Positions 26,878 through 51,439 of a stretch of 64,000 nucleotides of DNA are shown piece after piece (positions within the stretch are counted from its first letter, which is position 1; the number at the start of each line of letters is the position of its first letter). Position numbers and translations under genes: made by a program. The notes under the pieces are model-generated. The model worked only from the letters and a program-made list of their open reading frames with translations. It ran no database searches and had not been told where the DNA came from. Origin of the DNA: a virus; IMG/VR virus record IMGVR_UViG_3300035232_000453, one strand, 5' to 3'.

Positions 26878-26914
26878 TTGCGTTACTCCCTTTGATTAGT
26901 GATTTAAAACAAGT

Positions 26915-27289
26915 TTACGCTAAAACTTTAATTTCGTCAACCTTTTTAAATCCAAAGTCAGCAACAACATGTTTTACACCGTCTGTTCCTTCAACAATAT
27001 CACCAACACTAAGACTGTGCATAGGTGCTAATCGTTCAATTAATTCTTCTGGACCCATGTTTCCTACATGAAACACACCTTCGAGATTTAATGCAGTAAT
27101 ATTACTAACATGTGTGTAATATCCTCTGTTGAATGCATCAGCGGCAAGTCTACCTGTATCTTCTCTACCAAGATTCATGTCTAATCTTAGAGAATTTTTA
27201 TGAACTGCACTGTGACCTTCTTCGTTAATAAGATCAATTTCAGCGTCTGTTAGTCTAATTTGAAATACTTTAAATGCTTGCATGTTCAT
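26915..27289 (-). CDS. YodL-like domain protein
   Basis: LEGVFHVGN...MHSLSVGDIV...VADFGF matches the YodL-like pattern. Confidence 0.6.
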   Translation of the reverse strand: MNMQAFKVFQIRLTDAEIDLINEEGHSAVHKNSLRLDMNLGREDTGRLAADAFNRGYYTHVSNITALNLEGVFHVGNMGPEELIERLAPMHSLSVGDIVEGTDGVKHVVADFGFKKVDEIKVLA

Positions 27290-27322
27290 AGTTGGTTTCC
27301 TTTTTTTATTTAATATACTTAT

Positions 27323-27351
27323 ATTATAGAGCAAGATGTCTTACTTGTCAA
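27323..27351 (-). promoter_or_regulatory. sigma70-type early promoter with operator (27331-27344)
   Basis: TTGACA-AGTAAGACATCTTGCTC-TATAAT. Confidence 0.85.
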
Positions 27352-27365
27352 CCTTTTTAGTCAAG

Positions 27366-49221: not shown

Positions 49222-49830
49222 TTAATTTACGCTAGGGTTTCCATATAAGGAAAGAATAGCCCAACCAGACTCAGTAAAAATAAATTCTGCACACTGACCA
49301 ATGGTTACAAATGATATGTCTGTTCCATTTAAGAACGTGTCTGGTGTGACAACAATTGTACTACTTGGAGTATCAGTTACTACTAAAATTTTTCTTTCAC
49401 CTTCAATGCCATCTGCTAATGTTAGTGCAGTGCTAGTTGATGCATTTAGATAAACTGTGCCAGATGTTGATAAGGATACAGAGTTTGTAGCTGATGTTTT
49501 AACTGATACTACTTTTTGTAAAAATGCAATATCCCAAGGACTACTATTTGTTCCTAGATCATATTGTATTCCAGAATCAGTATTTGGTACAACATTACTG
49601 TTTACGTTTGCATTCAGCGTTAATGATCCTCCTGCGTTTCCTAATGATATAACGTTTCCGTTTACAACAAGAGTACCGCCGACATATAAATTGTCTAATA
49701 TGCCTGCTCCGCCTCTTACGCAAAGAGCAGATGTTGTTGATGCTAAATTCAAATCAGCAGCATTAACGTCTAATACGTTAGTGCTTTCTATTACTAGTGT
49801 TCCAGAATCTGGGTTAATGTGTGATGACAT
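49222..49830 (-). CDS. Virion structural protein
   Basis: ALCVRGGAGI..NLYVGG and YDLG...W fibre motifs; late promoter at 49868-49875. Confidence 0.7.
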   Translation of the reverse strand: MSSHINPDSGTLVIESTNVLDVNAADLNLASTTSALCVRGGAGILDNLYVGGTLVVNGNVISLGNAGGSLTLNANVNSNVVPNTDSGIQYDLGTNSSPWDIAFLQKVVSVKTSATNSVSLSTSGTVYLNASTSTALTLADGIEGERKILVVTDTPSSTIVVTPDTFLNGTDISFVTIGQCAEFIFTESGWAILSLYGNPSVN

Positions 49831-49902
49831 AATACTTTCTTCCTACTACTTCCTTTTATTATATATGTATTTATCAAAGACAAACCTTTTTGGCTGCTCA
49901 AA

Positions 49903-50146
49903 GAAAAAGACGCCAAAGCGTCTTTTTAGAATAAGCAAAATAGGTAGGATTCGGTTATACCTACAACCCCATAACACAGATACCATCTGAAATAAGGGAG
50001 CCAAGTTCCGCTTAGTATTGCGATGTGACACAGCGTATTTCTACTACCACGCCTGGGTACTACCCCTAACTTGCCAAGTTCGACCCTCTGGTAAAGGCCT
50101 CTTCCTTGCACTATAAACATTGAGCCGCTAAACTCTTTGTTGCTAT
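49903..50146 (-). ncRNA. Candidate structured ncRNA of ~240 nt, family unknown
   Basis: Own promoter and terminator, GC-enriched, multiple hairpins with G-U pairs on the minus strand, 3' H-type pseudoknot. Confidence 0.7.
49904..49927 (-). terminator. Intrinsic (bidirectional-type) terminator ending the candidate ncRNA
   Basis: AAAAAGACGC-UUUG-GCGUCUUUUU. Confidence 0.85.
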
Positions 50147-50152
50147 GTACTT

Positions 50153-50181
50153 AATATACAACATATTTGTACAAAGGTCAA
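50153..50181 (-). promoter_or_regulatory. sigma70-type promoter of the candidate ncRNA
   Basis: AAAGG-TTGACC-17-TATATT. Confidence 0.65.
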
Positions 50182-50222
50182 CCTTTATTTAATAAAAAAT
50201 TAATCTTTTTTAAAAATAAGCC

Positions 50223-50253
50223 AAAAAAATAGGCCCAATAAAGGGCCTATTTT
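50223..50253 (-). terminator. Intrinsic terminator after the major capsid gene
   Basis: AAAAUAGGCCC-UUUAUU-GGGCCUAUUUUUUU. Confidence 0.9.
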
Positions 50254-50275
50254 AGTATTACTTGTTAAGTTCGGT

Positions 50276-51439
50276 TTATGAGAACTTAAGGTTACCTGAT
50301 GCAACGTCAATTTTCGCTAAGTAGTCAGCTGCATTACCAAGAGATGAAGCTTGGTTGTTTAGCTCAACATAGCCATAACGTGTCATAAATGATACTGTTG
50401 GCTCGAAAGTTGATGGATCAAGTACTGTGCCTGAAGACATTAATGGAATGTATGGGCAATAGAATGCTGCCGCATCAATTTCACCGTCGCCTTTATAGCC
50501 AACTAGTACTGGAGCATTATCTGCCGCGTACTGGTCAACGAAAACACGCATAGTATTATTCAAAGTACCAACAAATTTAGTGTTAGTTGGAGCTTCAAAT
50601 GGACCTTCAGTTGTTCTTGCAAACGCTGAAGTTGTCGCACTTTGTAGTACTGTTAACATTGTTGGTGAAACAACAACGTAGTTACCTGCGCCACGACGTG
50701 TACGTGTAGCGATTAGGTTTGCAGATCTGTTAATAAGAACCGCTAGTGCAGCATGCTCGTCACCGACGAAAGTTGCTTGTCCTGAAACAGCGCCTTGGTC
50801 GTATGTGTCTGCAGCTGTACCTGCTAATGTACGTAGTGAAGTTAAAACTTCTTGATCGATTTCAGCAGTAATTTCTTGTGCAAGTGCTTGCATGATTTCT
50901 GCTTCAACGTCTAGACCGTGCATTGAATTAGCATCTTGTGCCGCTTCAAAAGTCCAACGTGCTGATAGTTTACGTGTTTTAGCTTCAACAGTTTGTTTCA
51001 ATACTTGGATTGAAAGTTTACGACCTGCTTCTGCTTCTAAAGAAGAAGTTGAAGTCGCTTTACCTGTTGCTGCGTCACCTGAGTAACCTTTTGCAATTGC
51101 AAATGGGCTTAGTGCTTCGTCGCCTGCTGTTGCAGTTGCGGCTGTTTCACCATATCTTACTCTTAGTGTGTGAATTTGTCCTACTGGACCTGTCATAGGT
51201 TGTACACCTACTAGTTCGTTCGCGATAACTGTTGGCATTACACGACGAATAACTGGAAGAATCACTTTGTTAAGTGATGCAACGTTACCTGCCATTGTTG
51301 TACCAGCTGCGGCTGATTCTGAAAGATAGCTCTTAGTGTTTTCTAGAACTGACTCCATAACAACCTTTTTGTTACCTGATAAACCATCTGTTAGTGCGTC
51401 TTTAGTTACGCCCCAATTTTCAAATAGATTCTGTGTCAT
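50276..51439 (-). CDS. gp23: Major capsid protein (gp23-like)
   Basis: GVQPMTGPVGQI, VEAKTRKLSARWT, EITAEIDQE, FYCPYIPL, FMTRYG motifs. Confidence 0.97.
   Translation of the reverse strand: MTQNLFENWGVTKDALTDGLSGNKKVVMESVLENTKSYLSESAAAGTTMAGNVASLNKVILPVIRRVMPTVIANELVGVQPMTGPVGQIHTLRVRYGETAATATAGDEALSPFAIAKGYSGDAATGKATSTSSLEAEAGRKLSIQVLKQTVEAKTRKLSARWTFEAAQDANSMHGLDVEAEIMQALAQEITAEIDQEVLTSLRTLAGTAADTYDQGAVSGQATFVGDEHAALAVLINRSANLIATRTRRGAGNYVVVSPTMLTVLQSATTSAFARTTEGPFEAPTNTKFVGTLNNTMRVFVDQYAADNAPVLVGYKGDGEIDAAAFYCPYIPLMSSGTVLDPSTFEPTVSFMTRYGYVELNNQASSLGNAADYLAKIDVASGNLKFS

Follow-up and report, generated by a model that had tools for sequence, protein, structure and literature searches.

The locus described here raises the question of what is encoded in the intergenic stretch that follows the major capsid gene of an uncultured, marine, T4-like phage, and whether the product serves the gene lying after it or stands on its own. 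The sequence analysed is a stretch of 64 kb, referred to as the window throughout, and the intergenic stretch and both its neighbours lie on the minus strand. The upstream neighbour (50276-51439) encodes a gp23-like major capsid protein (phrog_138, major head protein, E 3.4e-100), which shares 65-70% identity with the capsid proteins of the jumbo T4-like phages Vibrio phage 2.275.O, PA5oct and CBB. The downstream neighbour (49222-49830) is an ORF of 202 aa that has no PHROG or Pfam family. A sequence-only reading of this DNA had proposed a GC-enriched gene for a structured RNA at this place. The GC content of the stretch is 44.4% as against 36.2% for the window, corresponding to the 94th percentile, and the flanking spacers have 25-31%, so that the enrichment is real. 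The RNA stretch is present in about 20 seawater metagenome or metatranscriptome runs. A tRNA scan of the 64 kb window yielded no tRNA.

The comparison with Rfam called for by that reading was run in E-value mode, and manA (RF01745) is the sole family matched in the 64 kb window. The match extends from 50132 to 49934 on the minus strand, takes in model positions 1-192 of 192 and scores 50.2 bits, with an E-value of 7.6e-12 in the local scan and of 7e-10 when computed over the entire window. The gathering score of the family is 55.2 bits, 5 bits above the window copy, because of which this RNA is missed by a routine Rfam scan; a scan of the whole window at the gathering threshold returned nothing. 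The full-length match, taken with the homologues described below that exceed the cut-off, argues that the RNA, with its core at 49934-50132, is a slightly divergent manA and not a new class. Its sequence places it within the manA family, and the unknown RNA of the earlier description gives way to a catalogued one.

Relatives of the locus were drawn from 80 IMG/VR loci encoding related capsid proteins, some of which are referred to below by our own numbers (L007, L035 and so on). An RNA homologue is found just 3' of the capsid gene in about 20 of the 80, seven of them scoring above the Rfam cut-off for manA. The RF01745 scores are 79.9 bits in L061, 67.6 bits in L050 and 61.9 bits in L007, the RNA of the last being 90% identical to that of the window. 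A covariance model of our own, R1, built from 8 related sequences, matches the window at 49931-50142 with 214 bits, and a search of 85 sources with this model gave 24 copies, one of them in the window. An unannotated copy has also been identified in Pelagibacter phage Mosig (MT647606), where it scores 64 bits with the Rfam model and 188 bits with R1 and shares 73% identity with the window RNA. R1 detected no manA copy in the loci of four isolate jumbo phages (Vibrio 2.275.O, Phosso, PA5oct and CBB); the isolate jumbo phages with the closest capsid proteins have merely about 100-150 nt beyond the capsid gene. No match was obtained among the GenBank phages either by megablast with the window locus or by blastn with the canonical relative L061, and manA is absent from three of the five Kyanoviridae genomes searched (S-RIM2, S-MbCM7 and S-H35). 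The manA members in the jumbo-phage relatives lie just below the Rfam cut-off and are skipped by standard scans, which constitutes a gap in annotation.

The helices of the window RNA follow one another as they do in manA: the 5' hairpin comes first, then the closing stem, and then five more hairpins, of which an inner stem encloses three. The RNA also has the conserved blocks AGUGC, GGGGU.GUACCC and UUG.AGGU...UCCU.CC. Like most of the known members it comes from a marine T4-like phage. It differs in its diverged 5' hairpin, in an extra terminal helix uniting both ends of the RNA, and in having a promoter and a terminator of its own, whereas the family has been described from the 5' UTRs of metabolic genes. 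Weinberg et al. 2010 (PMC2864571), who described manA from marine metagenomes and T4-like cyanophages, counted it among the riboswitch candidates and gave a consensus that includes a doubtful pseudoknot. It is classed as cis-regulatory in Rfam, and later phage papers carry on this label without any test. The family has been on the list of riboswitch candidates since 2010, for fifteen years, without ligand or known role; no ligand is reported in the literature that we found on manA, and a review of former orphan riboswitches (PMC7266159) makes no mention of it.

The fold was examined by covariation in 23 distinct homologous sequences. In this set 96.4% of the cells pair and compensatory changes on both sides are seen in 37 of the 46 base pairs, as compared with at most 48% paired cells in controls with slid partners. 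All ten consensus helices are found in the window RNA. The hairpins listed in the sequence-only reading coincide with the helices of the manA covariance model, and the search of related genomes for homologues and compensatory changes, which it had also proposed, has provided both. A GNRA tetraloop, GAAA at 50038-50041 (minus strand), caps helix P6 and is GAAA or GAGA in the relatives. The terminal helix is formed by AUAGCAA at 50140-50146 (minus strand) and UUGCUUAU at 49931-49938, a single U being bulged out. Its counterparts in the relatives include AUAAGCAA/UUGCUUAU, AUAAGU/ACUUAU and AAUGC/GCAUU, and within the clade of the window 19 of 5000 permutations with shuffled partners score as high as the matched ends; in a more distant clade the helix is AU-rich and ambiguous.

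The last hairpin, P9, consists of GUAGG, a loop of 11 nt and CCUAC (49944-49964, minus strand); it corresponds to helix 10 of the model and is paired in 100% of the cells. This hairpin had been mistaken for part of an H-type pseudoknot closed by GGUU and AACC. The proposed pairing is formed in 62.5% of the cells, which is no better than shuffles (95 of 500). It was rejected also because both of its G's already take part in a covarying helix, with which it would compete. The loop of P9 covaries instead with the loop of the neighbouring hairpin, as described in a later paragraph.

The 9-mer GAACUUGGC does occur twice, at 50073-81 and 50000-08, as the first reading had noted, and this repeat had led to the suggestion of two alternative folds. 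The idea amounts to a two-state RNA switch in which a single CAAGUU chooses between two partners, and both the 9-mers and the CAAGUU are present in the window phage as well as in the 90%-identical L007. CAAGUU is indeed found once, at 50068-73; the notion that either copy pairs with it leaves out of account another GCAAG, which lies at 50105-50109. The first copy of GAACUUGGC pairs with this GCAAG (50105-09) and the second with CAAGUU (50068-73). Each copy supplies the 3' strand of a different helix, and the two helices covary independently, each with its own partner, at 100% and 98.4% paired cells. In the relatives the two helices differ in sequence, for example GAAGAUGG as against GAAACAGG in L035. 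As the helices differ in this manner and covary separately, the identity of the two 9-mers is best seen as a coincidence of the window lineage, and a switch between two folds is considered very improbable.

The covariation bears equally on the coding potential of the stretch. Two ORFs of 61 and 64 codons overlap the RNA, and a small protein could be the functional product if either of them were a gene. Both reading frames are intact in the window and in the 90%-identical L007; the 20 remaining relatives have lost the start codon or acquired stops within 0-44 codons. No codon-type conservation of either ORF was found among the relatives, where the substitutions track base-pairing and not codon positions. 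We therefore attach almost no probability to a small protein gene, and the structured non-coding RNA proposed from the sequence remains the appropriate description.

The signals around the RNA are those of a separate transcription unit. The capsid gene is followed by an intrinsic terminator at 50226-50253, minus strand, made up of an 11-bp hairpin and a T-run. It is followed at 50153-50183 by a sigma70-type promoter, GGTTGACC-17-TATATT, which agrees with the consensus at 10 of 12 positions and in which TTGACC-17-TATATT occupies 50181-50153 of the minus strand. A near-consensus promoter of the form GGTTGAC-17-TATATT lies at a fixed distance 5' of the RNA in 21 of 21 related loci and also in phage Mosig. 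The 64 kb window contains 10 copies of the GGTTGAC-type promoter, with 0.43 expected. Transcription would start at about 50146-50148 on the minus strand, a few bases 5' of the terminal helix. A boxA-like anti-termination signal was considered for the 5' leader, which offers no more than a loosely similar AACAAAG.

At the other end the RNA runs into an intrinsic terminator (49904-49927, minus strand) that consists of an A-tract and the hairpin GACGC-UUUG-GCGUC with U5, the hairpin and U5 lying at 49922-49904. A GC-rich hairpin and a U-run were found 3-27 nt 3' of the RNA in all 19 loci tested. The sequences of these terminators are free to vary among the related loci; the RNA core is conserved. 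Beyond the terminator, GATAAATAC at 49867-49875 (minus strand) precedes the next gene and is conserved in the related loci. Ten copies of this element are present in the 64 kb window, with 0.9 expected, and seven of them lie 19-64 nt upstream of an ORF start; by this position it is probably a T4-type late promoter. A conserved element, TTTGATAAATAC, is seen between the terminator and the next gene in most of the related loci. Among the related loci that have the RNA 3' of the capsid gene, the order of promoter, RNA, terminator and late-promoter-like element recurs. The sequence-only reading had described the RNA as insulated from the capsid gene by its terminator, as provided with its own promoter and terminator, and as separated from the next gene by a late promoter of that gene; each of these signals lies where it had been placed, and the promoter, the terminator and the late-type promoter are all conserved in related phages. 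The sequence evidence supports the view that the window RNA is an insulated transcription unit, that is, a free-standing RNA gene and not a leader. With a terminator behind the RNA and a separate promoter for the next gene, the window does not show the setting in which members of the family are annotated, namely the 5' UTR of a protein gene.

The arrangement also admits another interpretation, in which the manA fold acts as a riboswitch-like leader, binding a ligand and controlling read-through of the terminator at 49904-49927, so that the 202-aa gene would be expressed early and conditionally in addition to its expression from the late promoter. The cis-regulatory type given to manA in Rfam and its place among the riboswitch candidates of Weinberg et al. 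2010 (PMC2864571) speak for it, and transcriptional riboswitches classically show this succession of aptamer, terminator and gene. A transcriptional riboswitch is expected to have a terminator and a mutually exclusive anti-terminator overlapping the aptamer. The terminator is present. For an anti-terminator, the duplex energy between the 5' arm of the terminator and the RNA of the same locus is -7.2 kcal/mol, as compared with -6.9 kcal/mol for cross-locus pairs, a difference reached in 868 of 5000 permutations (19 loci). The 5' arm is thus no more complementary to its own RNA than to those of other loci, and since the terminators vary freely as well, no expression platform could be found. A common aptamer joined to differing expression platforms, as the copy in Mosig described below would suggest, could be expected of a riboswitch family. 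Against the riboswitch reading stand the free variation of the terminators beside a conserved RNA core, the terminal helix uniting both ends of the RNA, and the conserved late-type promoter that belongs to the next gene. The genes 3' of the RNA are unlike each other across the related loci, and the search of PHROGs and Pfam with the downstream genes of the window and its relatives gave no informative family.

The settings of manA in other phages bear on the same issue from both sides. In Mosig the RNA has the same promoter and no terminator, and the RBS and ATG of a rubrerythrin gene follow about 20 nt downstream. Here the RNA runs into the protein gene as a true 5' leader, whereas that of the window ends at its own terminator; the annotated 5' UTR setting is thus found in Mosig. 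It is not found in Synechococcus phage ACG-2014f (KJ019151), in which a canonical manA of 90 bits lies between two tRNA genes with gaps of 1 nt, as against the own terminator and the position after the capsid gene in the window. The unit of tRNA, manA and tRNA stands behind a sigma70-type promoter, CTTGACA-17-TATAAT, and such a promoter upstream of the RNA is common to Mosig, ACG-2014f and the window. Processing of the tRNAs would release the manA of ACG-2014f as a discrete RNA. In L033 a tRNA-Gly gene lies between the RNA and the terminator. The layout in Mosig, lacking a terminator, indicates that some manA members are mRNA leaders. As the manA family includes free units as well as mRNA leaders, a cis-acting role is possible for some members. 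For the window RNA, in view of the tRNA genes adjoining manA in L033 and ACG-2014f, the unrelated downstream genes and the separate late-type promoter, control of the 202-aa gene by a ligand is judged distinctly unlikely.

The strong promoter of its own, the unconditional terminator, the separate promoter of the next gene and the tRNA neighbours in other phages argue together that manA at this locus is a free RNA product. We consider it probable that the locus is a gene for a free manA RNA which is made early and associates with itself. In the scheme suggested by the signals, the host RNA polymerase would use the conserved sigma70-type promoter, initiate near 50146-50148 (minus strand) and transcribe a compact RNA of about 215 nt ending at the unconditional intrinsic terminator at about 49904. 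The covariation shows that this RNA folds into the terminal helix, a small 5' hairpin and a closing stem around a multi-helix core of five hairpins, one of them capped by the GNRA loop.

Two observations on other copies may be recorded at this point. In L050 (L050:4264-4485, minus strand) the manA, at 67.6 bits, is in the opposite orientation to the capsid gene, and from this inverted copy the manA unit appears to move as a cassette. The GenBank record of Mosig carries an annotated tmRNA (SsrA; L085:92-430, MT647606 111467-111805) a few kb from the manA copy.

Contigs from seawater metatranscriptomes provide some indication of expression. Contigs from all four runs examined cover part of the RNA, and the word depth in the contigs is 100-550 for the capsid gene and 8-23 for the next gene. 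In run X8, part of the RNA has a depth of 127-192 as compared with 23 for the next gene. The promoter and spacer (50124-50277) are uncovered in three of the four runs and covered in X16. Contigs cannot show the ends or the levels of RNAs, and this coverage is accordingly a weak hint of expression only. A strain-variant contig of run X19, as a single observation, ends in an Illumina adapter at about 50113-50122, the junction of the 5' hairpin and the closing stem; this end may reflect processing of the RNA or a stop of reverse transcription.

The nature of a free manA RNA may be approached through its loops, two pairs of which covary. In the numbering L5-L9, obtained for the window RNA by counting helices with the GNRA loop on L6 as sole anchor, the bases UAGUA of loop L5 (50058-50062, minus strand) are complementary to UACUA of loop L7 (50013-50017, minus strand). 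In relatives the pair appears as AGUA/UACU, GGUA/UACC, UAGU/ACUA and UGGU/ACCA; it varies less than the one between L8 and L9, and 136 of 5000 permutations with shuffled partners score as high as the matched loops. Loop L8, with UGGU at 49982-49985 (minus strand), is complementary to ACCG of loop L9 at 49952-49955. The L8/L9 pair takes the forms GGU/ACC, AGGA/UCCU, AUGA/UCAU, GAGA/UCUC and UGAU/AUCA in relatives, and its matched score was reached in none of 5000 partner permutations. The sequence comparison shows that the loop contacts are under selection, and the covariation fits contacts within one molecule or between molecules alike.

A preprint of July 2026 (10.64898/2026.07.01.735769) describes cryo-EM structures of manA RNAs, which assemble in vitro into RNA-only cages of 10-60 subunits. 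In the case of manA_A0F1, 60 subunits make up a T=1 cage in which the kissing loops L5-L7' and L8-L9' hold the copies together, and other manA RNAs form decamers (pho34) or octamers via the GNRA loop on L6 (10.64898/2026.07.01.735769). The assemblies reported there are in vitro only, and manA is still termed a putative cis-regulatory element (10.64898/2026.07.01.735769). The covarying loop pairs identified in the present analysis, taken with our own helix numbering, probably correspond to the L5-L7' and L8-L9' contacts of that work. The window RNA and its relatives have in common with the cage-forming manA RNAs (manA_A0F1 and pho34) the covarying L5/L7 and L8/L9 loops and the GNRA loop on P6; assembly has been seen in vitro for other members. 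As the covarying loops appear to be the cage contacts, again on our helix numbering, the cage assemblies may be under natural selection.

By analogy with the manA RNAs studied by cryo-EM, L5/L7 and L8/L9 may be the contacts by which copies of the RNA bind each other, and such binding would give closed particles based on pentamers. On this view the phage would produce the RNA early in infection, and it would associate with itself and act in trans instead of serving as a leader for the next gene. In its wider form, this reading would hold that manA RNAs are free early phage RNAs miscatalogued as riboswitch-like leaders, which form cages in infected cells through L5/L7 and L8/L9 and act in trans. 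We put this forward only tentatively and regard it, as a whole, as rather doubtful. If it is true, the cage might enclose or titrate a host or phage factor, and manA cages would be a protein-free RNA compartment of marine T4-like and jumbo phages.

RNAs with comparable behaviour are familiar from other phages. ROOL and GOLLD, RNAs of phages and prophages often encoded next to tRNA genes, assemble into multimeric cages made of RNA only, as described in cryo-EM papers of 2024-2025, and we know of no function for either. They are about 500-800 nt long, several-fold larger than manA, and are unrelated to it in sequence and fold. No Rfam match to ROOL or GOLLD was obtained in the 64 kb window.

Other structured RNAs have been identified in the vicinity of manA in the related phages. 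Glutamine riboswitch aptamers (RF01739, 43-55 bits) occur between the capsid gene and manA in six related loci (L007:2935-2984, L048:4666-4713, L035:3972-4021, L046:4234-4281, L061:4233-4280 and L045:4236-4282); none was found in the 64 kb window. The freshwater-2 RNA (RF02980), which to our knowledge is known only from metagenomes, lies between GATAAATAC and the RBS of the gene after manA, the product of which begins with MGRP (L046:4702-4784, L035:4540-4623, L045:4700-4784, L048:5230-5313, L032:3450-3533 and L061:4702-4772). From this position, freshwater-2 appears to be a 5' UTR element of late genes in these T4-like phages. The proteins encoded downstream of the freshwater-2 copies have no PHROG match. 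In ACG-2014f (L092:1492-1600, KJ019151 128491-128599) about 75 nt with the potential to form hairpins lie between the promoter and the first tRNA, and Rfam gave no family for this stretch at an E-value of 0.01 or better.

The promoter type that precedes the RNA gene also faces other stretches of the window. At 61598-62290 (minus strand), a GGTTGAC-type promoter (62260-62290) faces about 660 nt free of any ORF of at least 70 codons, for which Rfam returned no family at an E-value of 0.001 or better. Two further promoters of this type are situated in the region 26912-27353 (minus strand), at 26912-26942 and 27323-27353; the next ORF of at least 70 codons follows 171 and 582 nt downstream of them. 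Small genes or other RNAs may be encoded between these two promoters and that ORF.
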